Positions 1,044 to 52,608 of a stretch of DNA of 64,000 nt are shown here, in pieces (the first letter of the stretch is position 1; each line of letters opens with the position of its first letter). Under the pieces are notes generated by a model. The model had not been told where the DNA came from and did not search any database. It saw only the letters and a program-made list of their open reading frames with translations. Origin of the DNA: Escherichia phage UE-S1; the sequence record ON568341.1. One strand, given 5' to 3'. The translations under genes were made by a program, and so were the position numbers.

Positions 1044-1069
1044 GACAAAATTAGAAGGTGTGCTATAAT
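1041..1069 (+). promoter_or_regulatory. candidate promoter with extended -10 (TGcTATAAT), weak -35
   Basis: tgcTATAAT at about 1061-1069, 30 bp upstream of primase start; -35 only weakly TTGACA-like. Confidence 0.35.
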
Positions 1070-1098
1070 CATTTGTAAGAAAAGACAAGGATTAACTT

Positions 1099-2154
1099 AT
1101 GAACGCTGTACAAAACATAATGGCACAAATAATGAATGATCCAGTACCTTCAATTGGTACATGGTCACATCACAATTGTCCCGCTTGTGTGTTCAGAGGA
1201 CATTCAAGGCCGGATACAAAGCACCGTGGTAATCATATGTTCAATGCAGATGGTTCCGTATCATATAACTGCTTTAACTGTAGTTTAAAAACGGGTTGGC
1301 AGCCTGGAAAATATATGAGCAAAGATATGGAGTCTTTGCTCATTTCTTTTGGTGCACAAGATAAAGAAATAGAATTAGTTAAGTTTTATATTAAAGAAAT
1401 GGTTGATAGTGGAGATTACGCTACACAAGAAACGGTTGTATCAAAATTATATGATAGAATAACTGTGCGTGATTTACCATCAAATGCTAAAACATTTTGG
1501 GAATGGGCTTCGTTACCAGAAGACAAAATTCCCCGAGAATTTTTGAGTGTTTTGCATAACGTCAATGAAAGAAACCCATACTTATTAGATTTAGAATTAT
1601 ATTGGTCACCCAATAAAGAACATAAAATGTATGATAGATTTATTATTCCTTATTTCATGAATGGGAAAATCATTGGATACACAGCAAGACACAAATTAAA
1701 AGATCCCGGAAGTACATACAGGTTTATAAATCAAGTAAGTACAAATATACTATATAATTATGATTTATTAAAAGATGATAGAATAAAAACAATTTTAGTA
1801 TGTGAAGGGCCGTTGGATGCTGCATTGATGGGTGGAGTATCTGCAAATAACTTTAAACTATCCAATGTACAAATTGATGTATTAAAAGATGCACAACAAA
1901 AAGGTAAAAAAGTAGTTATTGTTCCAGACCGAGACAAAGATGGGTTAATAACAATAGAACAAGCACTTGAAAATGGATTCAGTGTGTCGTTCCCAGACTT
2001 TGGTGCAGTTAGAGAAGGGAGTACTATACGTCACATCAAAGATTTCGAAGAAGCGTGTTCACGTTTTGGAAGGTTATTTTGCTTGCAATTAATACACGAT
2101 AGTATAGTAGATGAGCCATTTTATATAAAAGCTCAAACAGAAAAATGGATGTAA
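1099..2154 (+). CDS. DNA primase (DnaG / T4 gp61-like)
   Basis: N-terminal Cys-rich zinc-binding region (CPAC ... NCFNC); TOPRIM-like motifs ILVCEGPLDA and VVIVPDRDKDG; immediately upstream of replicative helicase. Confidence 0.8.
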   Translation: MNAVQNIMAQIMNDPVPSIGTWSHHNCPACVFRGHSRPDTKHRGNHMFNADGSVSYNCFNCSLKTGWQPGKYMSKDMESLLISFGAQDKEIELVKFYIKEMVDSGDYATQETVVSKLYDRITVRDLPSNAKTFWEWASLPEDKIPREFLSVLHNVNERNPYLLDLELYWSPNKEHKMYDRFIIPYFMNGKIIGYTARHKLKDPGSTYRFINQVSTNILYNYDLLKDDRIKTILVCEGPLDAALMGGVSANNFKLSNVQIDVLKDAQQKGKKVVIVPDRDKDGLITIEQALENGFSVSFPDFGAVREGSTIRHIKDFEEACSRFGRLFCLQLIHDSIVDEPFYIKAQTEKWM

Positions 2155-2176
2155 TACATATAATGAGGGAACATAG

Positions 2177-3697
2177 ATGATTCAAAGCACAATGGATGTG
2201 AAACAATATGGGATTAATGCACAACAATACTTATTATCTCAGATTTTCAGTAATCCTGATTTATATGTACGTTGTAAAAATATCCTTAAACCTGAATATT
2301 TTGATAAAACATTTCATGAAAGTATTAAGTACGTTCATGATTATGCAGCAAAATATAGTTCATCACCAACTTTAAAAGATATTGAAGTTAAAGGTGGTTA
2401 TCAATACGACCAATATGAAGTTCAAGAATTACATAAACAATCAGTACTGGATACATGTGGTGAATTTTGCCGACACAAAGCATTAGCATTAGCTGTGGAA
2501 AAGGGAATGGAACTTGTCCATCAGAAAAAATATGGTGGGATAGAAGAACTAATTCGTGAAGCAATGCTGGTAACTGTACAGAATGAGTTAGGTTTGGACA
2601 TTTTTGAAAATCCAGAAGATACTATTCGTTCACTAAGTTCAATGCAAGGGTCATTTAAGAGTGGATGGGAAACACTTGATTACAAACTTTTCGGTGGCTT
2701 TGGGCGTAGAGAGTTAGAGATTTTTGCGGCTGCATCAGGTGGTGGTAAATCAGTAGTATTGCAAAATTTAGCAGTTAACTTTGCTAAAGCTGGAATGAAT
2801 GGTGCATACATCTCTCTAGAACTAGCTGAAGAGTTAGTTGCGGTTCGTATTTATGGTATGATGACTGAATCGAAACTCAGTAACGTAAAAAATGAAGCTG
2901 AAAAGATTGGATTTGCTGTTAAAGTTGAAGGTAAAAACAGTGGTATGTTGCGTATTAAACGCTTACCTGAATCTGTGACAACAACGGACGATATCGAAAG
3001 TTATCTACGTGAATTACAAATTAAGATGGAAATCAAACTTGATTATGTATGTGTGGACTATTTGGACCTATTAACTTCTAATCGTCTTGGACCAAATGAT
3101 AAATCCAATACATTTACTAAAGATAAATTTGTATCAGAAGAATTACGTGCTCTTGCATCAAAAATGGATTTGACTGTATTCACGGCATCTCAGTTTAACC
3201 GTAGTGGCATGGACGAAGATAAGAAAAGTCAAAGTCAGATTGCTGGTGGTATTTCAAAAATTTATACTGCGGATAACGTAATTTATATTGAAGCAAAAAA
3301 AGACACTGGGGAATTATGGTTTGATTTTCAAAAAACACGTAACAGTAGTGCAGTAGGTTCTCGCTTACGTATGTCCTATGATATTGACTCATTGCGAGTT
3401 CTTGATCACGCAATTACAGTACAACAAATGGAAACAGAAGGTAACGGATTCCGTCACAGTGGTGTTTCTAAGATTGGTGGAGGAAATATGGCATTACCTC
3501 CTAGTACAATGCAAACATTGCGTCATACGCTTTCTGGTACATCAAATTCATTATCTACACAACCAAACAAACAAGTATTACTAAATACTGAGAGTGCTCC
3601 TAACACAACAACACAAAATGAATTACAGCCCCCGCAGCCACATGCAGGTTCTGAACGTGTTCATGCAATGAAGCAATGGTTAAATCAAAGGAAATGA
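2177..3697 (+). CDS. replicative DNA helicase (DnaB / T4 gp41-like)
   Basis: Walker A AASGGGKS, Walker B-like CVDYLDLL, RecA-fold layout typical of DnaB family; adjacent to primase. Confidence 0.8.
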   Translation: MIQSTMDVKQYGINAQQYLLSQIFSNPDLYVRCKNILKPEYFDKTFHESIKYVHDYAAKYSSSPTLKDIEVKGGYQYDQYEVQELHKQSVLDTCGEFCRHKALALAVEKGMELVHQKKYGGIEELIREAMLVTVQNELGLDIFENPEDTIRSLSSMQGSFKSGWETLDYKLFGGFGRRELEIFAAASGGGKSVVLQNLAVNFAKAGMNGAYISLELAEELVAVRIYGMMTESKLSNVKNEAEKIGFAVKVEGKNSGMLRIKRLPESVTTTDDIESYLRELQIKMEIKLDYVCVDYLDLLTSNRLGPNDKSNTFTKDKFVSEELRALASKMDLTVFTASQFNRSGMDEDKKSQSQIAGGISKIYTADNVIYIEAKKDTGELWFDFQKTRNSSAVGSRLRMSYDIDSLRVLDHAITVQQMETEGNGFRHSGVSKIGGGNMALPPSTMQTLRHTLSGTSNSLSTQPNKQVLLNTESAPNTTTQNELQPPQPHAGSERVHAMKQWLNQRK

Positions 3698-5748: not shown

Positions 5749-6422
5749 ATTACGAATATGATCAACAATCAGTCAATCAGATGGCTGATTTGTTAAGTGG
5801 TCTTAATGATATTGAAGCTGGTGAGACACACAATGCGGCAGGTGTACCATATAAAGCTAGTGGTGATATTGGTGCAATGACCGCTATTTTAACTTCATTA
5901 AATGAAGCGGGTATGGACTATGGTACTGAACCCGAACCTACACATCCGAACGTAGTGCCATATAACGCACCATTTAACGAACACATGAATGGACAACCAT
6001 ATGTTCAGCCTATGGTACATCGTTCACCTCCTAAACCGAAAACCAACTGGAGTTTAGTTGAAGAAAAGGTACAAGGTACGAAATCTACTAAAGTTTATAG
6101 CATTAAGTGTAACCATAGTTCACAAATTATCATGAATAATATTATGATGTATGAAGCAGCACTTACTTTAGTTAACCTTCTTAACGAAGGGAGAATGTTG
6201 ACAGATGCTAAAATTCTTGGTATAATTAGTTCGGGTTTGCAATATACAAATGTTATAAGCGAAGCATTAAAAGCAGCCCATAAACGCCAACGTGTACTTA
6301 ATGAATCAAAGTATGATGAAGCAAAAGATTTAGATATAATCATTGCAGAAAAGAAAGCAGAAGCTTATAAATTAAAAGAGCGTGTGTTAAACTTTCTTAA
6401 AAATGAAGGGTATATCACTTGA
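5745..6422 (+). CDS. hypothetical protein (225 aa)
   Basis: ORF, start overlaps previous stop. Confidence 0.5.
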   Translation: MNYEYDQQSVNQMADLLSGLNDIEAGETHNAAGVPYKASGDIGAMTAILTSLNEAGMDYGTEPEPTHPNVVPYNAPFNEHMNGQPYVQPMVHRSPPKPKTNWSLVEEKVQGTKSTKVYSIKCNHSSQIIMNNIMMYEAALTLVNLLNEGRMLTDAKILGIISSGLQYTNVISEALKAAHKRQRVLNESKYDEAKDLDIIIAEKKAEAYKLKERVLNFLKNEGYIT

Positions 6423-8170
6423 TTATAGATGAATTGAAGAAATTCTTAAAAAGCAAAAACAAAAAAACATGGGTTAAGTTGGTAAACAATAATGAAGTAT
6501 ATTTTAAATATGTTCGTGAATTGTTCCCAACTAAACCCATGAATGAAGCATTATATCTTATAATGAACGATATGGTATGTGCACCATCTGCCCCATGTGG
6601 TTCTGAATGTAAATTTATTAATGGTTCATATGATAAGTATTGTTCTAAACCAACAAAACCAAACAAAAATCGTGATAATGGTTTTTGTGTAGTATGTAAT
6701 GAACATTGGAAGAACACCAAACTCAAAACTACTAAACAAAAATGCATTGATACTTATGGAGTCGAATACCATTGGCAAAGAAATGATGTAAAGGACAAAA
6801 TAAAAAGTACTAATATGAAACGATATGGTGTTGAACACAATTCACATATCGAACATGTTCTTGAAAAACGAAAGGAAACTTTCATTAAAAGATATGGTGT
6901 TGAATCACCTTTGGCATCTGTTGAAATTCGTGATAAGATAAAAGCAACAAACATTGAAAAATATGGTGTTGAAAATTATGGAAGTACTGATGAATGTATA
7001 GAAAAACGAAATAAAACAATGATGGATTTGTATGGTGTTAATAATGCACAACATGTAACGAAATTTTTAAATGAATCAAAGGTTACGAAAGCTAAAATTA
7101 GGTATGATAAAATTTTATCTATTATTAACCCTTCATATAAAGAACTTTTTGAATATGATGACTTAATTGATTCTACTAATGAAAGTAAACTTCCGTATTA
7201 TTGTGAAATACACAAAGGGTTGTTTTATAGTAATTATAAATATGGTATAGTTTGTAGTGTTTGTAATCCACCCGTGTATAGTTCCATACAAAATGAAATA
7301 AAGAATTTTGTGTCAACATTGACTGAATGTGACATTATTATGAATGATCGAAGTAATGGGTATGAATATGATATATACATCCCTGAACTTCAGATAGCAA
7401 TAGAAGTTAATGGTATGTATTGGCACAAAAGTGATATGGTTGATAAGTATTATCATAGGGCAAAAACAATAAATTCAATCGAACGTGGTATTAGATTGAT
7501 ACATATATTTGAAGATGAATGGTACAGTAAACAGAAAATTATTAAAAATAGATTAATGAACGTTTTTCAATGTTCTAGTAAGATTTATGCCAGAAAATGT
7601 ATTGTTAAAAAAATCAATACAAATATTTGTTATGATTTCCTAAACACTAATCATATACAAGGATATACTAGAACTGGAATAAACTATGGTTTGTTTTATA
7701 AACAAGAACTGGTTGCAGTAATGACGTTCAGTAAAAGTCGATATGATAAAAAATTTGAATATGAGCTAATACGATACTGCTCACGTGGAACTGTTGTTGG
7801 TGGTGCTGGTAAATTATTGTCTGCATTTGAGCGTGATTACAAACCATTGTCGTTGATGAGCTACGCAGACTTGAATTGGGGTTCTGGACAGTTATACATA
7901 TCTCTTAACTTTGAAAATTTAGGATATACAGAACCAAAATATTTTTATTATGATCCAAAAACAAAACAGCGTTTTTCTAGACAAAAATTTAGAAAACATA
8001 AATTGATTGAAATGGGATACAACTCATCTAAAACCGAAGAAGAGATATGCTTGGGTGAAATTGGATTGTATAAAATATACGATTCTGGCAATTGTAAATT
8101 TGCTAAATATTATTACAACATAAACATTACAGGAGATATTGAAAAATGTCCAAATCGTACAAAAAACTAA
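6419..8170 (+). CDS. multidomain protein: Cys-rich N-terminus, tandem KxYGVE repeats, Vsr/DUF559-like PD-(D/E)XK nuclease core, C-terminal region with GNAT-like R-x-x-G-x-G/A motif; putative homing-endonuclease-like protein
   Basis: About 5 tandem repeats ending in (K/R)YGV(E/N); segment YEYDIYIPELQIAIEVNGMYWH resembles the Vsr/DUF559 endonuclease core; C-terminal RGTVVGGAGKLL resembles the GNAT acetyl-CoA motif. Confidence 0.4.
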   Translation: MIIDELKKFLKSKNKKTWVKLVNNNEVYFKYVRELFPTKPMNEALYLIMNDMVCAPSAPCGSECKFINGSYDKYCSKPTKPNKNRDNGFCVVCNEHWKNTKLKTTKQKCIDTYGVEYHWQRNDVKDKIKSTNMKRYGVEHNSHIEHVLEKRKETFIKRYGVESPLASVEIRDKIKATNIEKYGVENYGSTDECIEKRNKTMMDLYGVNNAQHVTKFLNESKVTKAKIRYDKILSIINPSYKELFEYDDLIDSTNESKLPYYCEIHKGLFYSNYKYGIVCSVCNPPVYSSIQNEIKNFVSTLTECDIIMNDRSNGYEYDIYIPELQIAIEVNGMYWHKSDMVDKYYHRAKTINSIERGIRLIHIFEDEWYSKQKIIKNRLMNVFQCSSKIYARKCIVKKINTNICYDFLNTNHIQGYTRTGINYGLFYKQELVAVMTFSKSRYDKKFEYELIRYCSRGTVVGGAGKLLSAFERDYKPLSLMSYADLNWGSGQLYISLNFENLGYTEPKYFYYDPKTKQRFSRQKFRKHKLIEMGYNSSKTEEEICLGEIGLYKIYDSGNCKFAKYYYNINITGDIEKCPNRTKN

Positions 8171-8306
8171 TGGAAACTGCTTCTCGTGCTGAAGCAATGA
8201 AATTCATTAAATTGAATGAATCTAATATTGAAAAGGCAGAAATTGTCCTTTCAGTTAAAGGTGAAATTGTTGATAAATTACAACGTCAATCAGAGGTTTT
8301 AATAAC

Positions 8307-8780
8307 ATGGGTGTTGACGTATTAGGCCCACTACTAGATCGTATTAAAGCAGAACAAGGTCTAGATGCTGCTCAAAATTTTAGTGATAATGTTCGTCATC
8401 TACTACAACATGCTGTAGCCACTTTGATGGATGTAAAAGATAAAATCAGTACAGAAACACTTAAATTAACTGGTGATATTACCGATGGTCCTGATGTTTC
8501 TGATATTGGCAGTGAAGACGTTGATATTGATATTGCCGCCGACACACCAACTTTTGATATGGATGCTGATGCAGATTTTGATGATGATATTATTTCTGAA
8601 CCAGTTCCAACTGAGCGTGAAATGAAAGAATCAGTAAAACCACGTAAAGTTGGAGTAAAAATGGAAAGTATTCGTGGTACTGTAGGTACTAAATACTTTA
8701 GTTCAAAAGATGAAATGAAAACTTGGCTCTCTGAGAATGAAAAGAAAGTCAAACGTGTTCTAGGATATGTTAAAAAATAA
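8307..8780 (+). CDS. hypothetical acidic protein (157 aa)
   Basis: ORF with Asp-rich central segment. Confidence 0.45.
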   Translation: MGVDVLGPLLDRIKAEQGLDAAQNFSDNVRHLLQHAVATLMDVKDKISTETLKLTGDITDGPDVSDIGSEDVDIDIAADTPTFDMDADADFDDDIISEPVPTEREMKESVKPRKVGVKMESIRGTVGTKYFSSKDEMKTWLSENEKKVKRVLGYVKK

Positions 8781-8796
8781 TTAAGGACAAATCTAC

Positions 8797-9132
8797 ATGA
8801 GATTTAGTGATCTTACTGAAGAGGCTCCTGGTAAGGATATACGCAATATGATTACTACTATTGCGTTGTCTTTGATGTCAACGGGCCGAGAAGATGTAAA
8901 TGTTCAATCTTTGATTTCTGAAATCAAAAAGAGAACTAATATTGATGTTCCATACAATGTAATGATGGATATTTTGAATTCCCTTCCTTTTGTACAGGAT
9001 GCCAATTCTGATGTTGTAACTTTTGTTGGAAATTCAGCAGACGGTTCAGGTGAATTAGAACAAGATTCTGAAGATCAAGTTGAAGATTGGGCAACAAAAG
9101 CTGCGGTGTCAGCAAATAAACAAAAAAACTGA
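8797..9132 (+). CDS. hypothetical protein (111 aa)
   Basis: ORF in track, co-directional. Confidence 0.45.
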   Translation: MRFSDLTEEAPGKDIRNMITTIALSLMSTGREDVNVQSLISEIKKRTNIDVPYNVMMDILNSLPFVQDANSDVVTFVGNSADGSGELEQDSEDQVEDWATKAAVSANKQKN

Positions 9133-11107: not shown

Positions 11108-13426
11108 ATGATTAACGTAACCAAGCGTAATGGAATGAAAGAACCGTTATCATTGGATAAGATCCATCAGATTTTATTTTTCGCTGCTGAAGGTCTAAGT
11201 GGTGTTTCAGTTTCTGAAATTGAAATTCGTGCACAACTTCAGTTTTATGAGGGTATTGAAACCAGTACTATTCATGATATTCTGATTAAAGCAGCCGCAG
11301 AACTTATTTCAGAAGATACACCAAATTATCAATATGTTGCTGGTAGGCTATTAAATTATAGTATTCGTAAGCAAGTGTATGGACAGTATGACCCGATTAA
11401 ATATGCTGCTCATCTTCAAGAAATGGTTGATATCAAAATATATGATCCTGAAATTCTTGAAAAATATACTCTTCAAGAAATAGAAGAGCTTGGGCGTTAC
11501 ATCAAACATAAACGTGACGATAAATTTACTTATGTTGCAATGCGACAATGGGAAGGAAAATACCTTTACAAAAACCGCGTTACTAAGAAAATTTACGAAA
11601 CTCCACAAATGGCATATATGACTATTGCAGCAATCATCTTTATGGAATATGATCGTTCCGTTCGTATGTCATATGTTAAAAAGTTTTATGATGCAGTAAG
11701 TAACTTTGACATTAGTCTTCCTACACCTATTATGGCTGGTCTACGTACAAACACCCGCCAGTTTAGCTCTTGTGTAGTGCTAAATGTTGGTGACAGCTTG
11801 GATAGTATTGGTTCATCTAATCACGCCATTCTACGTTATATTTCACGTAAAGCTGGCCTTGGTATTAATATGGGCCGCATTCGTGCCCTGGACTCCGAGA
11901 TTCGTTCAGGTGATGCAGTACATACTGGATTGATTCCGTTCATTGCAGCTACTGCTAAAACTGTTAAAAGCTGTTCACAAGGTGGTGTTCGTGGTGGAGC
12001 AGCAACTGTTCACTTTCCATTATGGCATTTGGAATTTGATAACTTGGTAGTTCTTAAAAACAACAAAGGTACTGAGTTTAACCGTGTACGTCAACTGGAC
12101 TATTGTTTCCAAGTAAACAAAACTTTGTATCAACGTTTGGTTGATGGAAAGAATATCACGTTCTTTAGTCCTAATGAAGTTCCTGGGTTATATGAAGCAT
12201 TCTGCTCCAATCAAAAAGAATTTGAAAAACTATATAAAAAATACGAATCTGACCAAAGTATCCGTAAAAAATCCGTACCTGCCGTTGAAGTATTCAGTAC
12301 TTTAATGACGGAACGTGCAGAAACTGGTCGTATATATATTCAAAATATTGACCATGCAAACACTCATTCAACATTTATTGAATCAATTGCACCTATCGAA
12401 CAATCCAACTTGTGTCAAGAAATCGCACTACCATCTGTTCCATTTGATGACATTAATACTGGTGAAGGTTTGATTAGTTTATGTACCTTGAGTGCAATCA
12501 ACTGGGGCAACTTTGACCGTCCAGAAGAGATGGAAACTGCATGTGATCTTTCTGTTCGTGCTCTTGATTCATTATTGGACTACCAAGACTACCCAGTAAT
12601 TCATGCAGACAGAGCAACCAAAATGTATCGTCCACTAGGTGTTGGTATTATTAACTTTGCATACTTCCTTGCTAAACGTGGTTTACGTTATGATGAAGCA
12701 GCATTGGAAACCGTTAACGAGTGGGCTGAAGCATGGTCTTACTATCTAATTAAATCTTCTGTACAGCTTGCTAAAGAGAAAGGTAAATGTGAAGGATTTG
12801 ATAATCTAAAATATGCCAAAGGTATCCTTCCAATTGATACTTATAAGTCTGACATTGATGAATTAGTAACTAAAGAACTAAAACAAGATTGGGAATCTTT
12901 ACGTGCAGATATTAAAGAATATGGTATTCGTAACGCAACAACAATGGCATTAATGCCAGCAGAAACAAGTGCACAAATTAGTAACAGTACTAACGGTATT
13001 GAAAAGCCACGTTCTCTTGTAACTAAGAAACTATCTAAGGATGGTATTCTTAAACAAGTAGTTCCAGAAATTAATAAGTTGAAAAACAAATATGATTTAC
13101 TATGGGATCAGAAAGATAACATTGGTTATCTACAAATTTGTGGTGTTCTACAAAAATACATTGACCAAAGTATCAGTGTTAATACCAGTTATAACCCAGC
13201 ACACTTCCCTGATGGGAAGTTACCAATGTCAACTCTCCTAACTGAGCTTATGTATGCATATAAGGTTGGTTTGAAAAATCTTTATTATCATAATACAAAT
13301 GATGGTTCAGATGAAGTAGACGTTGAGAAAGTACTGAAAGAAGCAGCAAAGCCAGAATCAGGACAGTTTGTCTTACCTACATTACCAGACTTAGATGAAG
13401 GTGATTGTGATAGCTGTAAAATCTAA
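11108..13426 (+). CDS. nrdA: ribonucleotide reductase class Ia large subunit
   Basis: 772 aa; N-terminal ATP-cone-like segment, active-site NLCQEI, C-terminal Cys pair CDSCKI; followed by nrdB. Confidence 0.9.
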   Translation: MINVTKRNGMKEPLSLDKIHQILFFAAEGLSGVSVSEIEIRAQLQFYEGIETSTIHDILIKAAAELISEDTPNYQYVAGRLLNYSIRKQVYGQYDPIKYAAHLQEMVDIKIYDPEILEKYTLQEIEELGRYIKHKRDDKFTYVAMRQWEGKYLYKNRVTKKIYETPQMAYMTIAAIIFMEYDRSVRMSYVKKFYDAVSNFDISLPTPIMAGLRTNTRQFSSCVVLNVGDSLDSIGSSNHAILRYISRKAGLGINMGRIRALDSEIRSGDAVHTGLIPFIAATAKTVKSCSQGGVRGGAATVHFPLWHLEFDNLVVLKNNKGTEFNRVRQLDYCFQVNKTLYQRLVDGKNITFFSPNEVPGLYEAFCSNQKEFEKLYKKYESDQSIRKKSVPAVEVFSTLMTERAETGRIYIQNIDHANTHSTFIESIAPIEQSNLCQEIALPSVPFDDINTGEGLISLCTLSAINWGNFDRPEEMETACDLSVRALDSLLDYQDYPVIHADRATKMYRPLGVGIINFAYFLAKRGLRYDEAALETVNEWAEAWSYYLIKSSVQLAKEKGKCEGFDNLKYAKGILPIDTYKSDIDELVTKELKQDWESLRADIKEYGIRNATTMALMPAETSAQISNSTNGIEKPRSLVTKKLSKDGILKQVVPEINKLKNKYDLLWDQKDNIGYLQICGVLQKYIDQSISVNTSYNPAHFPDGKLPMSTLLTELMYAYKVGLKNLYYHNTNDGSDEVDVEKVLKEAAKPESGQFVLPTLPDLDEGDCDSCKI

Positions 13427-13432
13427 ATAAAG

Positions 13433-13457
13433 ATCCCGCCACGGCGGGATTGTTTTT
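13433..13457 (+). terminator. intrinsic terminator
   Basis: ATCCCGCCacGGCGGGAT hairpin followed by TGTTTTT, directly after nrdA stop. Confidence 0.7.
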
Positions 13458-13471
13458 AACGGGGTGATATA

Positions 13472-14245
13472 ATGAAAGTAGATTATTTTAAACCAATTAG
13501 TATTGGTTTCATTGAGGAATTTTGGGATGATTTGGACATGGATATGATTGTCCGTCATCAAAAGCTTCCAGACGATTTCATTAAGAAGCATTTTGATAAA
13601 ATGAACCCTAACATGTTGGTTCGTTATCAAACCATGTCGATTGATTTCATAAAAGAAAAATGGGAATGGTTTGATAAGAACATTTTGGCAACATATGTTG
13701 TCATGCCACTAGAACTCATTAAAGAGAAGTGGTATGATTTTAAAGATAACTTTCTTGGAACAGTTGCAAAATACCAAAAAATGTCATTGGATTTTATCCA
13801 AGAAAAATGGGATGACTTTGTAGAGTTTAAAAATGGCGTAATGTCAGAAATCTCACGTTACCAAAAACTAACTTTGGATTTCATACAAGAGAAGTGGGAA
13901 TATATAGATAAGAATTATATTTCTTATTATCAAACTTTAACTGTTGATTTCATCAAAGACAACTTGGAAGAACTTAATGTTGCTGCGGTATCTGCATTCC
14001 AAATTATTTCTGATGATGTTCGAAATCTTATGGGATTGGATGCACCAGCAGCAACCATTACAGGAAACCAAATATTAGCTCTAGACCCGTGTCCAGAGGG
14101 TATGGCACGATATAACGCCCATACCCCTGATAACACAACGGTACTGACATGGAATGAATTATTACAAAAACACTTGGGTACACAGGAAGGAATTCGTGAT
14201 ATCCATTGGCTGTCTTATAAACTAGGACATAACATCAATACATAA
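13472..14245 (+). CDS. tandem-repeat protein (about 7 repeats of a DFI(K/Q)EKW-containing unit), function unknown
   Basis: Periodic repeats, e.g. KLPDDFIKKHFDK, TMSIDFIKEKWEWFDKN, KMSLDFIQEKWDDF, KLTLDFIQEKWEYIDKN, TLTVDFIKDNLEE; sits between nrdA and nrdB. Confidence 0.55.
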   Translation: MKVDYFKPISIGFIEEFWDDLDMDMIVRHQKLPDDFIKKHFDKMNPNMLVRYQTMSIDFIKEKWEWFDKNILATYVVMPLELIKEKWYDFKDNFLGTVAKYQKMSLDFIQEKWDDFVEFKNGVMSEISRYQKLTLDFIQEKWEYIDKNYISYYQTLTVDFIKDNLEELNVAAVSAFQIISDDVRNLMGLDAPAATITGNQILALDPCPEGMARYNAHTPDNTTVLTWNELLQKHLGTQEGIRDIHWLSYKLGHNINT

Positions 14246-18566: not shown

Positions 18567-19869
<1,303 letters not shown>

Positions 19870-29820: not shown

Positions 29821-32214
29821 ATGACAACTTTTACCCCACGCTGGGACATAAAAGCCGATGCTCGATATATACAAGAAGGACAAGACATTCTTGTGCGTTT
29901 GAGTATCAATAAAAAAAGCACAACGGATGATAGATATGTATTAAATGAAGAAGAATACTTAGAGATGATTCTTAATATACAATGCTTGGATAGTTCAGGT
30001 ACTGTATTTGATCCAGAACCACATTATACTTTTTATGTTGGTAATGATGAAAATAGTTTTGTTCCGATTTCCGATGGGACCACTGGTAATACATTAGTAA
30101 ATGGTAAGCATAAGTGTAAAATTAGTAAAAAAGAATTTAACTTATCAGCAAACACTAACAGTGAAGATGTATATTTTATAAAAATCCACTGTAAAAATGA
30201 TGGAACCTATAACAATACAGAAGTTATTAATTTTTATTTACAAGCAGTAAATGTTATGTATTATGGTAATATCTCACCAAGTGGAGTATTAGGTTCAACC
30301 GATGTTGCAGTAACATACGATAGTCAGGAAGTTTGGGTTACGCCTGGTGTTGAAATTGGTGATGATAATAAGCTTTATTGTATTGGTGATGTTGAATATG
30401 GTTCAAACAGCACACTATTTGTACAAGGATTTGGTAGAAGGCGACCTTTTATATTAGGCACAGACATTACTGATGATATTACACCACGTGTCTTTTTTCC
30501 TGCTTATAGATTGCTTGATATGGATATATCAGAAGTTCCTCAGAAACATATAACAAAGGATTATGCTGTATTCAAGCCATCACAATCAACATGGCCTATT
30601 TCTGGTATAAACAAAGAAGTAAAAGTTAACATTCAAAATAAGAATGGAAGTCTCATTGATACAGGTATGATTTTTAACCCCAATGGACAATTACTTCAAA
30701 CATTTTTGTATGACTCTGATGCATGTGATGCATATTTTAAAGTTGAGATCGTTGATATATTAAGCACATATTTAGAGGAAAGTGAAAGGTTTGCAATCAA
30801 TCAACGATATAAAGCATATCAAATGTGGGTATGTCCTGAAGATATAGATACTATCTATTCTGTCTCAGACAAACCATTACCCAATCATTTATATCAATTA
30901 AAAGATAATGTTGTGTATCCATATGTAATTAGTGGTGAATATGACAAAGGCTCACTTAAACCTGTATATGATAGTAGTGATTGGATAGATTTGGGCTATT
31001 ATGACCCTTCTCTTGGTGAGAATATCATTGGTATGCAAAAAGTATTCAGGGTATTGGTTAACGCCGAAGAAGGAAATAACATAAACTTTACCACTGATAG
31101 TGACTTAGGAATAATTCATGTCGGTGAATATTTTGGTAATAGCACTTATCCTAAACTAGAAACTGATAGTACAAGTCAGGTTTCTTATATGTTAGATGGT
31201 GGTGATGATATCAGAAAATACGGAATTGACTTGACACCGGATGGGTATCTTATTGGAACCGCATATGCAAAAAGTATTGATTTTAGTCAAAATGATGATA
31301 TTAAACTATCATTTTACGTTAAAGTATTCAGTACTGAAGGTGGTGAAGCAAGGAAATTATTCAACCTTAAAATAGTGAGAGGATTTGGACAGAATTATTT
31401 GAGTGCACATGTATTGCCTTCTGTTGCATTTGAGCGAGAGTGGTTTAAATGTATTAGTACTTCATCATTCACAAACCAACTATTTTTCCGTCAATCTGAT
31501 AATAGATATGGTCTTCAAAAAGTACCGAAGATGTTATTAAAAGAAAACTTCCTAAGCCAAACTTATCCATATACAAATCTTTCTGATATTAAAAAAGTAT
31601 TACGAAAGAGTATAGTTAATTCAAATGGAACTACGATTCCTAATGGAAAATTTAAAATGGTTATGGGTAATTATAAATTATTATCAGTACTTGACAATCA
31701 AGGCAATTTGCAATATGATTTATTATACAGAGAAGTTTTGCCAGAAGGTTCATTAGTATCAGTATCAAAAAATCCTCGTCAGTATACACAAATAGATAAC
31801 GGACAACTTGGTGAATTGTTTGGCCTACGTCAAAACATATTTCAAGCTATTGGCGAAGATACTACCAACTTGGTCAAAGATCCAACAGATTTACAAAACC
31901 GTGGTCTATATGTTGATGCAATACCAAGTGTAAGTGAAGAAATGCTCGACACTGTTCCTAGGTTCATGAATCATCCATATATTGAAAATGGATTACAGAA
32001 AAAATTCATGCCTATAATTCCAGTTGCTTTTTGTCAACCGGGAAAAGGTGAAGCGTTTTTCAACACTTTACTCCAGAATAATGAACATGGTACAATGGTA
32101 GGTCTAGAATTTGAAATCACATCAGTTGAATTCGGATACTTTTCACATGAATCAGTTAATTATGTGCCTGATACATTTGTGATTACCCTACCAAACAATA
32201 ACATAGGAGGTTGA
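29821..32214 (+). CDS. large hypothetical protein (797 aa)
   Basis: Long uninterrupted ORF; no motif recognised. Confidence 0.55.
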   Translation: MTTFTPRWDIKADARYIQEGQDILVRLSINKKSTTDDRYVLNEEEYLEMILNIQCLDSSGTVFDPEPHYTFYVGNDENSFVPISDGTTGNTLVNGKHKCKISKKEFNLSANTNSEDVYFIKIHCKNDGTYNNTEVINFYLQAVNVMYYGNISPSGVLGSTDVAVTYDSQEVWVTPGVEIGDDNKLYCIGDVEYGSNSTLFVQGFGRRRPFILGTDITDDITPRVFFPAYRLLDMDISEVPQKHITKDYAVFKPSQSTWPISGINKEVKVNIQNKNGSLIDTGMIFNPNGQLLQTFLYDSDACDAYFKVEIVDILSTYLEESERFAINQRYKAYQMWVCPEDIDTIYSVSDKPLPNHLYQLKDNVVYPYVISGEYDKGSLKPVYDSSDWIDLGYYDPSLGENIIGMQKVFRVLVNAEEGNNINFTTDSDLGIIHVGEYFGNSTYPKLETDSTSQVSYMLDGGDDIRKYGIDLTPDGYLIGTAYAKSIDFSQNDDIKLSFYVKVFSTEGGEARKLFNLKIVRGFGQNYLSAHVLPSVAFEREWFKCISTSSFTNQLFFRQSDNRYGLQKVPKMLLKENFLSQTYPYTNLSDIKKVLRKSIVNSNGTTIPNGKFKMVMGNYKLLSVLDNQGNLQYDLLYREVLPEGSLVSVSKNPRQYTQIDNGQLGELFGLRQNIFQAIGEDTTNLVKDPTDLQNRGLYVDAIPSVSEEMLDTVPRFMNHPYIENGLQKKFMPIIPVAFCQPGKGEAFFNTLLQNNEHGTMVGLEFEITSVEFGYFSHESVNYVPDTFVITLPNNNIGG

Positions 32215-32215
32215 T

Positions 32216-32527
32216 ATGTTTAATCCTTTCTTTGATCCGTCTGGGATGACCGAAAAGGAACTACAGTTGAAAATTAATGAACAGTCAATGCGTTTAACAT
32301 CAGCACGTGCTGCTGGGATGAGCAATATGATTATTGGTAATATGCAAACTGTGTTAAATCAATGTTATGCTGAACTAGAACTTCGTCAAGGACAAAAAGA
32401 GAAAAATGTTTACGATGATGAAGGTCCATGTATATTTGACATGGATTCCTATCTAACAGATAATGAAGAGGCCCAGAAGAAGAAAAATGAAAGTACAAGG
32501 AAACAGATTTATAAGTCCCAATGGTGA
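32216..32527 (+). CDS. hypothetical protein (103 aa)
   Basis: ORF starting 2 nt after previous stop. Confidence 0.4.
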   Translation: MFNPFFDPSGMTEKELQLKINEQSMRLTSARAAGMSNMIIGNMQTVLNQCYAELELRQGQKEKNVYDDEGPCIFDMDSYLTDNEEAQKKKNESTRKQIYKSQW

Positions 32528-33005
32528 TGTGAAATGTAATCTCAATGCAGTTGTTTATGCAATCAATTGTGGTGTAGATATCCAGTACTTACAATTACAG
32601 GAAATTGATGAACCTGAAAGGTTAAAATTTAATGATAACTGTAAAAAATTTGGCTTAGAACAACGTATGCTGGATTATACGATAGAACATGATAAAAATC
32701 ATGAACTTTGGCGTTATGATCCAGTGTATGATAATATAAATCTTCGTGATTATTTTTTAGAAAAATGTACTTCAGATGAAGCACGAAAACGTGTTGAATA
32801 TGAACTTGATTTATATGAATATTATAATATGACAAAGCTATTGAGGTGTATGATATGGCTAGTCGATTATATGGAAGAAAATAAGATCTTTTGGGGTCTT
32901 GGGCGTGGAAGCTCTGTTGCATCGTATTGTTTGTTTTTGATTGGTCTACATATGGTAGATTCATTGAAATATGAACTTGATGTTAATGAATTTTTGAAAT
33001 GGTAG
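32463..33005 (+). CDS. small protein resembling a fragment of the DNA polymerase III alpha (DnaE) palm, lacking catalytic Asp residues (tentative)
   Basis: C-terminal RVEYELDLYEYYNM ... FWGLGRGSSVASYCLFLIGLHMVDSLKYELDVNEFL parallels DnaE [12 protein letters not shown] ... [34 protein letters not shown]; ORF ends before the PDFDVDF position. Confidence 0.3.
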   Translation: MKRPRRRKMKVQGNRFISPNGDVKCNLNAVVYAINCGVDIQYLQLQEIDEPERLKFNDNCKKFGLEQRMLDYTIEHDKNHELWRYDPVYDNINLRDYFLEKCTSDEARKRVEYELDLYEYYNMTKLLRCMIWLVDYMEENKIFWGLGRGSSVASYCLFLIGLHMVDSLKYELDVNEFLKW

Positions 33006-33023
33006 AAAAACATGTGATATAAT
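32994..33023 (+). promoter_or_regulatory. candidate promoter (TTGAAA-18-TATAAT) with -10 inside an 11-bp inverted repeat
   Basis: TGTGATATAAT (33013-33023) and its reverse complement ATTATATCACA (33039-33049); upstream of gene at 33072. Confidence 0.45.
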
Positions 33024-33071
33024 GTTTGTTACAGAAGCATTATATCACACATACAATAAAAGGATTTTTAT

Positions 33072-33416
33072 ATGTCTAAACACACAACTTATCGTGGTAC
33101 AACTATTGATATGGATATGCTCAAGTACCAAAACCAATACCAAGTTGCATTAGGTAACGCAAACCTAAATGCACGCGGTGACAAAATTGGTTCCGGTGGT
33201 ACAATTGTTAAAACTCGTGAAGAGTTACTACAAGAAAAAGAACGAGAAATGCAAATTCCTGATTATATTCCTGAGCATCAACTTCATAGTACTGAGCATA
33301 GTACTGAAGATGTATGGGATGATGAAAGTTTTGAAGTTAAGCCTGAAGAACAAGAAGCTAAGGTTTCCGAAGAGAAGAAAGCACCACGTCGAGCTAGAAC
33401 CAAAGATCAGGAGTAA
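33072..33416 (+). CDS. hypothetical protein (114 aa)
   Basis: ORF with acidic C-terminal half. Confidence 0.45.
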   Translation: MSKHTTYRGTTIDMDMLKYQNQYQVALGNANLNARGDKIGSGGTIVKTREELLQEKEREMQIPDYIPEHQLHSTEHSTEDVWDDESFEVKPEEQEAKVSEEKKAPRRARTKDQE

Positions 33417-33424
33417 TATATTAA

Positions 33425-33751
33425 ATGACTAAAAAAGTAATGACAGCATGTAAAGGTAAAGTTTTAGTAACTGAACTTGAACATGGTGAACGTAAAACAG
33501 CAGGTGGTATCGTTTTAACAAACGATGATGGTAAAATTCGAGGAATCCGCTCACGATGGGCGAGAGTTTATTCTGTTGGTGAGGACATTACTGATATTAA
33601 AGAAGGGCAATGGATTTTAATCGATCATGGACGATGGTCCAGAACGATTGAAGTTGATGGTATCAAATTGAACTTAGTTGATTACCCTGCTGCTGTTAGT
33701 TTAGTGTCAGATGAAGACCCTCGAACTAAAATGCTAACATTTGGACGTTAA
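33425..33751 (+). CDS. GroES-like co-chaperonin (T4 gp31 functional analog candidate)
   Basis: KGKVLVTELEHGERKTAGGIVLT and VYSVGED ... IKEGQWIL parallel GroES [20 protein letters not shown] and the mobile-loop/roof regions. Confidence 0.55.
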   Translation: MTKKVMTACKGKVLVTELEHGERKTAGGIVLTNDDGKIRGIRSRWARVYSVGEDITDIKEGQWILIDHGRWSRTIEVDGIKLNLVDYPAAVSLVSDEDPRTKMLTFGR

Positions 33752-34101: not shown

Positions 34102-35055
34102 ATGACCACACTATGGACTGAAAAATATCGCCCACAAACAATGGAAGATTATGTATCAAAGAACGATGCACTACGCCAGAAAATGGAAGAATGGATTAAA
34201 ACTGGTGATATTCCTCATATTGGTTTTTTTGGCCCAGCAGGAACTGGTAAAACATCTGCAATTAAAGTTCTTATTAATGGGTTAGTTCAAAATGGACACC
34301 TAGACCCAAGTGATGTAACGACTCTTAATATGTCAGATGAAGGTATTGATGCGGTACGTGATAAAATCGATGCAGCAGCTAAACTATCATGTTTTGGAAG
34401 ATATCGTATTTTTGTTCTTGAAGAAATGGAGCAGATGAACCATAAAGCACAAGGTAGTTTGAAACGTGTAATGGAGGATTATCATGAAAATGCTCGCTTT
34501 ATTTTAACAAGTAATGAGCCACATAAAATTCAAAAGCCTATCATTTCTCGTGTTCAAGTCATCACTATTGAAAAGCATGACATGGAACAGTTCATGACTA
34601 GAATTTACAATATCCTTCTCGCCGAAGGTGTTGACCTGAGTAGTGATGATAGTGTTGAGCAAGTCCAAAAGTACATCAATGCTTCATATCCTGATTTTCG
34701 TAAAACGTTAAACGTATTGCAAAGTTCTGTTGTTGATGGTAAGCTAGTAAAATTAGAGGATAGTATTGAAAATTCAGCGGGATACCGCACTGCAATCATT
34801 GATGCATTGAAGGCAGGTAATATTCGTCAAATGCGAGAACAGATTGTTCAATCTATTCCTGATGATGAAATGGATGCATTTTTCTCTTACTTATACCGAA
34901 ATGCTGAAATGTTCAGTACTGACGAAATCACGCTGATGAAGATTAAAGTTAAAATTCGTGATGCAGTTGTAAAGCAAGCTACAGTGTCAGATCGTGAAAT
35001 GAATCTCAGTGCTTTGTTGTGTGAGATTGACCTAATTTGTTCGGGGAACATGTAA
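34102..35055 (+). CDS. sliding-clamp loader ATPase (RFC small-subunit / T4 gp44-like)
   Basis: RFC box WTEKYRP, Walker A GPAGTGKTS, Walker B FVLEEME, sensor ISRVQV. Confidence 0.8.
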   Translation: MTTLWTEKYRPQTMEDYVSKNDALRQKMEEWIKTGDIPHIGFFGPAGTGKTSAIKVLINGLVQNGHLDPSDVTTLNMSDEGIDAVRDKIDAAAKLSCFGRYRIFVLEEMEQMNHKAQGSLKRVMEDYHENARFILTSNEPHKIQKPIISRVQVITIEKHDMEQFMTRIYNILLAEGVDLSSDDSVEQVQKYINASYPDFRKTLNVLQSSVVDGKLVKLEDSIENSAGYRTAIIDALKAGNIRQMREQIVQSIPDDEMDAFFSYLYRNAEMFSTDEITLMKIKVKIRDAVVKQATVSDREMNLSALLCEIDLICSGNM

Positions 35056-35780: not shown

Positions 35781-36344
35781 ATGGAAGATTTAGATTATAC
35801 AGATAATGCTATTCAGCAGTTGTATGATAATAGTGGTATGTTAGATATACTTCTTGCTGTTGAGAAATATTTCGATGATAATGATTTATATGCATATAAA
35901 GGTATCATCGAGGGAGAATTAGTTGAAGGTCCAATTGTAAGTAAATATTGGTGTACTGTTACATTTAAATACTATCGTGAAAATTTTCCAGATCCTACAG
36001 CATTCTCCATTTTGGAGAAACATGGTACTAAAGTATATGTCAAAGCTGATTATGAAATAACACCAATACAAGAACCAAATCGCCAAGCTGACATGAAAAG
36101 CGTAGCGACACAATCTGGTTCTGTGCGTATTCCAAAAAATGAAAGAATTCCAGTACTGTTGGTTAGAGTTCAAATTCCAAGAAACTTAATTAATCCAGAA
36201 AGTTTTGATGAATATAAACTTATGGCATCCGAATTTAATAGTAATCCTATGAATTCTCCCGAAAATACCGAAGAACCAGTCACTGGTGGTGATGTTGATT
36301 TGGATGTCGATGTAAATGATGATATGCAAGAAGGTGGAATGTAA
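35781..36344 (+). CDS. hypothetical protein with acidic C-terminus (187 aa)
   Basis: ORF; C-terminus GGDVDLDVDVNDDMQEGG. Confidence 0.5.
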   Translation: MEDLDYTDNAIQQLYDNSGMLDILLAVEKYFDDNDLYAYKGIIEGELVEGPIVSKYWCTVTFKYYRENFPDPTAFSILEKHGTKVYVKADYEITPIQEPNRQADMKSVATQSGSVRIPKNERIPVLLVRVQIPRNLINPESFDEYKLMASEFNSNPMNSPENTEEPVTGGDVDLDVDVNDDMQEGGM

Positions 36345-37024
36345 TGAAAAAGAAATTAAATGAACAGGGATTACGCCCACAGGTTCTTAAAGACTTGATT
36401 CATCCTATTATTAGTGTTGATGAATATACTCCTAAAATTGAGGATAGTAATATTGTTATTATGTTCCAAGTTCTAAATAATTTTGATGCCGCATACGATT
36501 TATCTTCTTTTATTGAAAAATCACCAATTGATGCAATCGATACAGAAGCAGCAGAAACTCCTAATTTGGACGGTCGATATCAAGTTTATGTTGAAATGGA
36601 ACGCAATGCGGAGTTCCCTGAAAAACTATTACGTTTAATCAAAACCATTGAAAACATTTGTCCAGACCCTGGTTGGAAAATCCAACTATATGGTGTTAAT
36701 GATCCCATTGATGTTGATTTTGACGAAATACAGCAGAGAATTGATTTAGGTATTCCGAGTACAATTAGTGAGTTTCTTGACTATGCAGGAGTTTCTGCAA
36801 TTAAAGAAGGTAATATGTTGACACTAAAAACTGCATATGGTAAATTACATTATAGTTCTGGAAGTGGGTTTGTTTCGGAAACATATGTTAAAAAGTTATT
36901 AAAAAGTGATACACAATTGGATACATCACGTCTAAGTTCTATTTTAGGTGAAAGTTATACAGTTCTACGTAGTGGTGATCAATATGTGATTGGGAGAAAT
37001 GGGAAGTATTTGGTGTTGCGATGA
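36344..37024 (+). CDS. hypothetical protein (226 aa)
   Basis: ORF with ATGA overlap to upstream gene. Confidence 0.5.
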   Translation: MKKKLNEQGLRPQVLKDLIHPIISVDEYTPKIEDSNIVIMFQVLNNFDAAYDLSSFIEKSPIDAIDTEAAETPNLDGRYQVYVEMERNAEFPEKLLRLIKTIENICPDPGWKIQLYGVNDPIDVDFDEIQQRIDLGIPSTISEFLDYAGVSAIKEGNMLTLKTAYGKLHYSSGSGFVSETYVKKLLKSDTQLDTSRLSSILGESYTVLRSGDQYVIGRNGKYLVLR

Positions 37025-50727: not shown

Positions 50728-52608
50728 ATGAAACCTATCCGAGTACTATCTCTTTTTAATGGGATGAGTGTAGGATACATGGCATTAAAAGATGCTGGTA
50801 TCCCTGTTGAAAAATATTATTCATCCGAAATTGACAAATTTGCTATAGCTGAATCCCAAGCTAACTTCCCCGATATCATCCAATTGGGTGATGTAACTAG
50901 ATGGAAAGAATGGGATATCGAATGGGACAAGATAGATCTACTGATGGGTGGTTTTCCATGCTTCCCAGCAGGAACTATGATAATGACAAATAAAGGTCAT
51001 AAAGATATAAAAGATATAAAAATTGGTGATATGGTTCTTACACACACTGGACAGTACCAAAAAGTATTGAGTACTGGTGTTAAAAAGGCTCCCACTCGTA
51101 TTATTACAGGTCAAGGTCACCTTCCAATTGAATGTACCGATAATCATCCATTTTGGAGTAGGGAACGTCTAGCCAATAAATGGAATAATCAACGCCGAAG
51201 ATATGATTCTGTGTTTTCTGAACCGCAATGGGTAAATGCTATAGATCTTACTAAACAAAGTTATATTTGTAATGTTAAAAATATTACACATAATACAGTA
51301 AGTGATAAAGATGAAAAATATTGGTATTTTGTTGGTCGTTTTATGGGTGATGGATGTGCTAGTGTATCTAATAACAAATACAGTATTACTATTGTAGATT
51401 CATTAGATAAAGTTGATGAATTGAAAAAATGTTTTGATGATTTTGGATACAAATACACATTAGCTATTAAAGATAATCATGTAAGATGTGATATATATAG
51501 CAAAAAGCTTTATGATGAATTAATATGTATTGGGCATAAATCACAAAACAAATGTTTACCACCTGAAATATTCAATGAAACTATCAATAACAAAGAAGCA
51601 TTTATTAAAGGATACATGGATGCAGATGGTTGTGAGGATAAACACAATAAAAAATACAAATTTACCACCACAAGTTATAAAATAGTTCTTGGTATGCAAC
51701 AGTTAATCTTAGATACTTATCAACGTCATTGTACTATTAGTCAAACTGTTCCAAAAACAAAAAAATATATAAAAAATAAGTTGGTTAATCAGCTTCCGTA
51801 TTGGAATGTTCATTTTAGCTATAATAAAATTAAAAGAGATGATGTAATATATGATGAAATTTATATATGGAATCGTGGTGTAAAAAGTAATGTACCAACC
51901 GGAGAATGGAAAACCGTTTACAATATTGAAGTTGCAGTAGATAACACATATACGGCGAACAATATTGTAGTTCATAACTGCCAAGCGTGGTCAGTTGCAG
52001 GTAAACAGGGTGGAATAAATGATCCTCGTGGTATGTTATTCCATACAATGGTTGATATTTACCAGCACATAAAAAGTCTCAATCCAGACTTGAAAGTACT
52101 GTTCGAGAATGTTAAAATGAAAGAAGATTTCAAGCAATACATTAATAGTGTTCTTGAGATGACACCAGTACTGATAAATTCCCAGCATTATACGCCTCAC
52201 TTCAGGCAGAGATATTACTGGTACAGTACTGATAAACTTTTTATACCACCTGCATTATCAAATGCACCTAAACTTCAAGATATTATTGAAGATGGTTGGT
52301 ACACTGACAGAACCGCTTCGTACTGTATAGATGCTAACTATTTTAAGGGTGGGGATTGTAACCAGTACTTTAATAAATCAAGAAGACAAATTGTTTTCAA
52401 AGAACCTGATATCGATAGGGATTTCCTTCTTGAACATGGTAAGCGAAATGTGGACTATCGTCATTTAACAGTACAAGAGTGTTGCATGTTGCAAGGAATT
52501 GATGTAAACTACTTCAAAGTTAGTAGTTCAACACAAGCATACAAAATGCTTGGGAATGGATGGACTATGCCAGTTATATCACACTTACTACGAGATATAT
52601 TCTTTTGA
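50728..52608 (+). CDS. C5-cytosine DNA methyltransferase interrupted by an intein
   Basis: Exteins carry motif I LSLFNGMSVG, motif IV GGFP|CQAWSVAG (reconstituted across the intein), ENV motif VLFENVKMK, FRQRYYW and LGNGWTMPVISHLL; intein inserted before the catalytic Cys. Confidence 0.85.
   Translation: MKPIRVLSLFNGMSVGYMALKDAGIPVEKYYSSEIDKFAIAESQANFPDIIQLGDVTRWKEWDIEWDKIDLLMGGFPCFPAGTMIMTNKGHKDIKDIKIGDMVLTHTGQYQKVLSTGVKKAPTRIITGQGHLPIECTDNHPFWSRERLANKWNNQRRRYDSVFSEPQWVNAIDLTKQSYICNVKNITHNTVSDKDEKYWYFVGRFMGDGCASVSNNKYSITIVDSLDKVDELKKCFDDFGYKYTLAIKDNHVRCDIYSKKLYDELICIGHKSQNKCLPPEIFNETINNKEAFIKGYMDADGCEDKHNKKYKFTTTSYKIVLGMQQLILDTYQRHCTISQTVPKTKKYIKNKLVNQLPYWNVHFSYNKIKRDDVIYDEIYIWNRGVKSNVPTGEWKTVYNIEVAVDNTYTANNIVVHNCQAWSVAGKQGGINDPRGMLFHTMVDIYQHIKSLNPDLKVLFENVKMKEDFKQYINSVLEMTPVLINSQHYTPHFRQRYYWYSTDKLFIPPALSNAPKLQDIIEDGWYTDRTASYCIDANYFKGGDCNQYFNKSRRQIVFKEPDIDRDFLLEHGKRNVDYRHLTVQECCMLQGIDVNYFKVSSSTQAYKMLGNGWTMPVISHLLRDIFF
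50959..51978 (+). mobile_element. intein with LAGLIDADG homing-endonuclease domain (340 aa) inside the methyltransferase
   Basis: Starts with Cys (CFPAGTMIMT), block B TDNHPF, two LAGLIDADG-like motifs (FVGRFMGDGC, IKGYMDADGC), ends IVVHN with +1 Cys. Confidence 0.8.

Follow-up and report, generated by a model that had tools for sequence, protein, structure and literature searches.

Why does a phage whose replication genes look T4-like, and which would be expected to use a family B polymerase, encode a small protein that resembles a fragment of the Pol III alpha (DnaE) palm? The question is raised by a 64,000-nucleotide stretch of Escherichia phage UE-S1 (ON568341.1), here called the window, in which an open reading frame (ORF) stops right before the position of the catalytic aspartates of DnaE. 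A first-pass annotation had recognised the similarity, the lack of a PHP domain and the T4-like context, all of which stood up to analysis; of the three explanations it offered, a gene remnant, a domain recruited for a non-catalytic role or chance similarity, none turned out to be the best. We consider it probable that the ORF encodes the N-terminal, nucleotide-binding half (a function that we infer) of a minimal C-family, Pol III alpha-like nucleotidyltransferase made from two genes. Systems of this kind are characteristic of RaK2/121Q-like phages and of other large phages with a T4 core. We refer to the protein in the window as the N unit and to its separately encoded catalytic half as the C unit.

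Escherichia phage 121Q, PBECO4 and about 35 further jumbo phages of the RaK2-like type (~350 kb) are collinear with the window and 89–92% identical to it. The window contains the clamp loader, primase and helicase of the T4 core (Table 1), and the family B (T4 gp43-like) replicase is encoded beyond it, as gp610 in 121Q, in line with the context proposed in the first-pass annotation. In homologues and in the 121Q annotation the N unit starts at the second ATG of the ORF, so that the protein opens with MKVQGNR. Its N-terminal extension is conserved in length and variable in sequence, and a structure search with these ~65 residues gave no match. At the other end, the C-terminal EFLKW corresponds to ERFL (389–392) of DnaE, and the protein ends 8 residues short of D401.

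Table 1 Features of the window (positions in window coordinates).
Feature	Position	Strand	Length	Remarks
Structural/primase/helicase block	51..3697	+		Just 3' of the C-unit gene in every relative
Virion structural protein	51..1043	+		
Primase	1099..2154	+		
DnaB/gp41-like helicase	2177..3697	+		
Insertion relative to 121Q	6416..8143		1.7 kb	
ORF in the 1.7-kb insertion	6419..8170	+	583 aa	DUF7487
Insertion relative to 121Q	13458..14240		0.8 kb	
ORF in the 0.8-kb insertion	13460..14242	+	260 aa	
Small ORF upstream of the N unit	32216..32527	+	103 aa	PHROG 15348; 41-nt overlap with the N-unit start
N unit, longest ORF	32463..33005	+	180 aa	
N-unit CDS, split mini Pol III alpha	32487..33005	+	172 aa plus stop	Homologue-supported start
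N-terminal extension of the N unit	32487..32690	+	~65 residues	Beta-hairpin plus helices
Homologue of the N-terminal part of the DnaE palm	32760..32999	+		E. coli DnaE about 311–392; Pfam PF07733 positions 16–95
GLGRGSSVAS, Pol-beta-type 'G[GS]' triphosphate-binding loop	32895..32924	+		E. coli DnaE G359–S368
Sigma-70-like site	32994..33023			TTGAAA-18-TGnTATAAT, 11/12 positions matching
Hairpin	33013..33049			Perfect 15-bp stem
Conserved neighbour downstream of the N unit	33072..33416	+	114 aa	PHROG 14844
GroES/T4 gp31-like co-chaperonin	33425..33751	+		N-unit neighbourhood
Clamp-loader large subunit (T4 gp44/RFC-like)	34102..35055	+		N-unit neighbourhood
ORF with 'PIDVDFD'	36344..37018			Virion structural protein in 121Q
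C5 cytosine DNA methyltransferase	50728..52608	+	626 aa	286 aa in 121Q
Intein in the methyltransferase	about 50956..51978		~339 aa	In-frame insert

Several other features of the window were noted. The 66-nt spacer 3' of the N-unit stop codon holds a hairpin of -19.1 kcal/mol (z -3.7 against shuffles), which overlaps a strong sigma-70-like site and could serve the next gene in regulation or processing. The product of that gene, PHROG 14844, is invariably encoded between the genes for the N unit and the gp31/GroES-like protein, from phages of Escherichia to those of Agrobacterium. Its N-terminus bears the conserved motif RG..V(D/N)M..(L/M/I)...N...VA(V/L)...NA(R/K)GD..(4-5 variable residues)..G.(I/V), and its tail is charged and probably disordered. 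Relative to 121Q, the C5 cytosine DNA methyltransferase is enlarged by an intein with Hint and LAGLIDADG homing endonuclease domains (Pfam: DNA_methylase 8.4e-29 in three pieces, LAGLIDADG_3 3.4e-10, Hint_2 3.8e-8), inserted in motif IV (GGFP/CFPAG...VVHN/CQAWS), where the catalytic Cys would be the +1 residue. The 1.7-kb insertion probably carries a mobile or homing nuclease gene, its product matching DUF7487 (2.9e-19) and, weakly, restriction endonuclease-like proteins. The 0.8-kb insertion lies between the genes for the large and small subunits of ribonucleotide reductase, and its ORF has no Pfam match.

The similarity of the N unit to DnaE is genuine homology. The Pfam family DNA_pol3_alpha (PF07733) matches residues 100–179 of the 180-aa ORF on profile positions 16–95 of 260, with an E-value of 2.9e-9 and 37.4 bits against a gathering cut-off of 23.9, and no other Pfam domain, PHP included, was found in the protein. 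In a profile built from 38 diverse family members, residues 99–171 (172-aa numbering) align with E. coli DnaE 320–392, directly ahead of the catalytic aspartates as the first-pass annotation had drawn it. The top nine matches of this profile in the PDB are all Pol III alpha; a phmmer search of the PDB with the single ORF sequence was not informative (best Pol III match E 1.8). The similarity spans 80–109 residues, well beyond the low-complexity GRGS stretch to which it might have been confined. By fold comparison, the closest structures are C-family replicases only. In a model of the isolated N unit, residues ~131–140 have no assigned secondary structure and the lowest confidence within the homologous part, which fits a requirement for a partner without proving it.

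The N unit is also a conserved family with a fixed boundary. It matches PHROG 11127 end to end (E 2.9e-86, residues 9–179 on profile positions 1–171 of 171) and is the orthologue of 121Q gp56, with 97–98% amino-acid identity to the 121Q and PBECO4 proteins. Its gene differs from that of 121Q at 37 nucleotides, 33 of them third codon positions, and is clearly under purifying selection, since 32 codon differences are synonymous and 4 non-synonymous. Proteins of ~170–177 aa with the same C-terminal end occur in phages of Klebsiella, Erwinia, Yersinia, Salmonella, Xanthomonas, Pseudomonas (PA5oct), Agrobacterium (Atu_ph07), Sinorhizobium (Phosso), Ralstonia and Stenotrophomonas. An exhaustive search by profile, covering 1.84 billion representative proteins, returned 3138 relatives at E <=0.001 and 481 at E <=1e-30, so that the family comprises at least 481 clusters at 50% identity in metagenomes. 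The best 150 relatives are all 152–196 aa long with the match reaching the protein end in each, and no fused form was found among them. Across the 38 diverse N units, R102, E106, G137, G139, R140, G141, S142, S143, V144, S146, H155 and F169 are invariant; most end within 3 residues of the EFLK-type motif, and a few have tails of up to 14 more.

The catalytic acidic residues are not in the N unit and sit on a partner protein. Directly downstream of the N unit (33006–33420), where the first-pass annotation would have looked for the missing segment, the ORF contains an 'IDMDM' that is not conserved in its PA5oct, Phosso and Atu_ph07 homologues, and this region is not where the segment is encoded. 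Among all ORFs of the window, the best-looking DxDxD-type motif was 'PIDVDFD', in an ORF with no Pfam match that is a virion structural protein in 121Q, and it was rejected as a chance occurrence. In the relatives, the missing half instead lies ~31 kb upstream of the N unit. We located it through the PHROG-style label 'DNA polymerase' on 121Q gp16 (13282..13920), a protein of 212 aa (PHROG 11778, E 4.7e-108) with the N-terminus MQDSTDSKHYRKARTDIDIDF. Position 1 of the window corresponds to 121Q 14253, which places the C unit outside the window; given the 92% collinear identity to 121Q, it is expected about 0.33–0.97 kb to the left of base 1, ending ~333 nt away.

The C unit carries the catalytic and finger residues of Pol III alpha. 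In 29 diverse homologues, D16, D18 and D20 are invariant and equivalent to P-D401-F-D403-V-D405-F of DnaE, as are K80 and D82 (K553 and D555 in KFDFLG), R149 and P150 (R639-P640 of FRPG 638–641) and H190 and Y194 (H760 and Y764 in FNKSHSAAY), and K188 (K758) is nearly invariant. The DxD motif begins at residue 2–3 in some C units ('MDIDIDF'). A PDB search with the C-unit profile gave Pol III alpha as all of the top seven matches, in four collinear pieces with marginal E-values of 0.025–0.2, and the Pfam finger domain is likewise marginal (E 0.045). The AF2 model (pLDDT 93.6, pTM 0.81) adds fold-level support: Pol III alpha accounts for each of its top eight Foldseek matches, with E-values from 3e-3 to 0.2 and probabilities reaching 0.99–1.0, and all other matches have E above 2. 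The C unit covers about DnaE 396–430, 511–650 and 736–785 and lacks the thumb (about 433–510), part of the fingers and all domains after ~785; Pfam finds no PHP domain in it. On a canonical 1166-aa DnaE from a faecal phage contig, the N profile matches 324–398 (E 1.8e-13) and the C profile 508–639 and 735–763 (E 1.1e-7), adjacent and without overlap. Between them, the two units thus supply the GS loop, all three acidic residues and the conserved residues of the fingers, arranged as in DnaE and not overlapping. As to annotation of the C unit, most GenBank records call it 'hypothetical' or 'putative membrane protein', and in Atu_ph07 (MF403008, 4983..5561) the CDS AUZ94883.1 starts too far downstream and loses the catalytic DIDID, the true start of the ORF being MKNIPDIDIDF.

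The two units occur together. By tblastn, the N unit is present in 99 phage records and the C unit in 95, with essentially equal counts per host genus (N and C units, respectively: Escherichia 33 and 33, Pseudomonas 11 and 11, Klebsiella 10 and 11, Salmonella 8 and 8, Erwinia 8 and 8, Xanthomonas 4 and 4, Yersinia 4 and 4). Four of the 99 N-unit records are 'Bacteriophage sp.' faecal contigs, and the one inspected bears a canonical DnaE. Every relative inspected, namely 121Q, PA5oct, Phosso, Atu_ph07 and Slickus01, has a C unit. In Slickus01 the N unit was missing among the tblastn matches listed and was found by a profile scan of the whole genome (E 1.1e-17). This T4-like Alishewanella phage (OQ508957, 141 kb) encodes the N and C units at 30297..30809 and 18847..19458. 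With a genome below the 200-kb jumbo threshold, it shows that the split mini Pol III alpha also occurs outside jumbo phages.

In none of the genomes inspected are the two genes adjacent, the distance between them being 31 kb in 121Q and IA-38, 43 kb in PA5oct, 182 kb in Atu_ph07, 224 kb in Phosso and 11 kb in Slickus01. Each has a conserved neighbourhood of its own. The N unit is followed by the small conserved ORF, the gp31/GroES-like gene and then the clamp loader, and the C unit by a small ORF on the opposite strand, the structural protein, the primase and the helicase. Because each unit keeps its own synteny at differing distances in five lineages, the split is old and fixed.

How could two such proteins work? 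The palm of Pol III alpha has a Pol-beta-like architecture, and the N unit carries the helices and the invariant GxGRGSS loop that in DnaE (320–392) come before the catalytic strand. Because the break falls inside one fold unit, between the GRGS strand-loop and the DxD strand, the two chains would have to associate, probably through a shared sheet. They would form an obligate heterodimer in which the 'IFWG' strand and GS loop of the N unit pack against the DxD strand of the C unit, rebuilding one Pol-beta-like palm with a minimal finger. The predicted complex would be a metal-dependent nucleotidyltransferase and, most probably, a DNA polymerase that is template-directed, has low intrinsic processivity and has little grip on DNA of its own. 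It may not be a usual DNA polymerase, because it is without the thumb, HhH/beta-binding and OB domains that hold DNA in Pol III alpha. The mini polymerase would act beside the family B replicase of the phage, together with replisome partners. Speculatively, we favour a role in primer extension, lagging-strand synthesis or repair, since the C unit adjoins the primase and helicase and the N unit lies near the clamp loader. In Bacillus, DnaE is reported to extend RNA primers before hand-off to PolC, and the phage enzyme might similarly extend RNA primers beside the primase-helicase and then hand off to the family B replicase. The same replication region of 121Q also encodes gp9 (8128..8946, beyond the window), a DnaQ/epsilon-like 3'-5' exonuclease (RNase_T 6.7e-15) that is a candidate proofreading partner. 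The bolder proposition, which we advance tentatively and with rather less than even confidence, is that the two chains, assembled through a beta-sheet common to both, make up an active C-family DNA polymerase smaller than any other known (about 384 aa compared with about 1160 aa) and working alongside a T4-type, archaeo-eukaryote-like replisome.

The same two units could instead make one Pol-beta-fold enzyme that does not copy a template, for example a terminal transferase, a modifier of primers or DNA ends, or a producer of nucleotide signals or counter-defence molecules. In its favour, chemistry varies widely within the Pol-beta nucleotidyltransferase superfamily, neither the thumb nor the duplex-binding HhH/beta-binding domain nor the OB domain is present, and a complete family B replicase is already encoded by the phage. 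Nevertheless, we regard such an enzyme as unlikely: the Pol III alpha-specific finger motifs FQL, RPG and F-x-K-x-H-x-x-A-Y are retained and invariant, the nearest structures of both units are C-family replicases only, and both genes lie within replisome gene blocks in every lineage.

Somewhat more doubtful still is that the N unit acts alone and without catalysis, as a nucleotide- or protein-binding adaptor of the replisome or a decoy for a partner of host Pol III, with the C unit independent of it. Such a role would suit an ORF that has no acidic catalytic residues and an extra N-terminal module of ~65 residues with no counterpart found by structure search, and whose gene is never next to that of the C unit. 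It leaves unexplained the strict phyletic co-occurrence with the C unit and a boundary inside one DnaE fold unit, between the GS loop and the DxD strand, and the invariant triphosphate-binding GRGSS loop is hard to account for without a catalytic partner. The recruited non-catalytic domain of the first-pass annotation is unlikely for a similar reason, the catalytic half being encoded separately by a strictly co-occurring gene in which DxD...D and the finger motifs are invariant.

A decaying remnant of a complete dnaE, or a chance similarity, might be suggested by a protein one seventh the length of DnaE without catalytic residues, and by the word 'truncated' used in the CBB paper; we give this reading hardly any credence. 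Chance is excluded by the Pfam match and the fold comparison, and decay by the conservation data, that is, a ~170-aa protein with a kept C-terminal boundary, at least 481 clusters and purifying selection. Finally, cyanobacteria have split dnaE genes whose products are joined by trans-splicing, and there a C-family catalytic subunit likewise comes from two distant genes, but joining of the phage halves by a split intein can be dismissed: the phage split site is a different one (GS loop/DxD strand), DnaE-like sequence runs to within 0–3 residues of the N-unit C-terminus in most and <=16 in all of the 38 homologues, DxD begins at residue 2–3 in some C units, Pfam finds no Hint domain in either unit, and with no spare sequence at either end for intein halves (about 100 and 35 aa) the parts stay two chains.

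Compared with DnaE and PolC, the two-chain phage polymerase that we favour shares the Pol-beta-like palm, the GS loop, the DxD plus third Asp and the RPG and NKSH of the fingers. It differs in consisting of two chains (172 and about 212 aa) rather than a single chain of ~1160 aa, and in residing in a phage whose main replicase is of family B. Of the parts of a complete DnaE it lacks the PHP domain, the thumb, full fingers, the beta-clamp-binding/HhH and OB-fold domains and the tau-binding tail, and D401, D403 and D555 are not in the same chain as the GS loop.

A split mini Pol III alpha is already known from the literature. Iyer, Anantharaman, Krishnan, Burroughs and Aravind (2021, Viruses 13:63; PMC7824862, section 3.4.1) described a split minimal Pol III alpha in group 2.2 jumbo phages from sequence analysis, and the system reported here is the same, with nothing essential different. 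They distinguished two units, an N-terminal one that stands alone and binds NTP and a C-terminal one, encoded far away, that binds Mg2+ and template, in the T4-core jumbo phages RaK2, 121Q, PA5oct, Atu_ph07 and others, which also have a family B polymerase, and suggested that the split enzyme may cooperate with the family B enzyme in the synthesis of one strand or in repair (PMC7824862). The N unit in the window is likewise a stand-alone protein, homologous to the part of the Pol III alpha palm that binds NTP and ending before DxD, and its host is a T4-core large phage, with PolB placed via 121Q gp610. A 172-aa 'truncated' Pol III alpha (CBB_328) was already noted in the CBB paper, and the Atu_ph07 paper lists the N-unit protein. 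The PA5oct omics paper makes no statement on the two genes, the PaBG and Sharanji papers contain nothing on function, and we found no experimental study of the system in the literature. To the account of Iyer et al. 2021 we add a mapping onto E. coli DnaE residue by residue, the synteny kept by each unit, the family size in metagenomes, fold-level support for both units and the presence of the system in a 141-kb non-jumbo phage.

Current GenBank labels are misleading in this respect. With the N unit given as 'DNA polymerase III alpha subunit' and its partner as 'hypothetical', they suggest that these phages are replicated by Pol III. The orthologues 121Q gp56 and CBB_328 (PHROG 11127) are named in this way as the polymerase itself, with no link to the partner gene. 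If the two proteins rebuild an active polymerase, they would define the minimal catalytic core of C-family replicases and show that two chains can share one Pol-beta-type palm. The two-chain enzyme would then offer a living model of the ancestral Pol III core before fusion. It would also place a bacterial-type polymerase core inside a T4/eukaryote-like replisome, which bears on the origin of the two unrelated replicase lineages.
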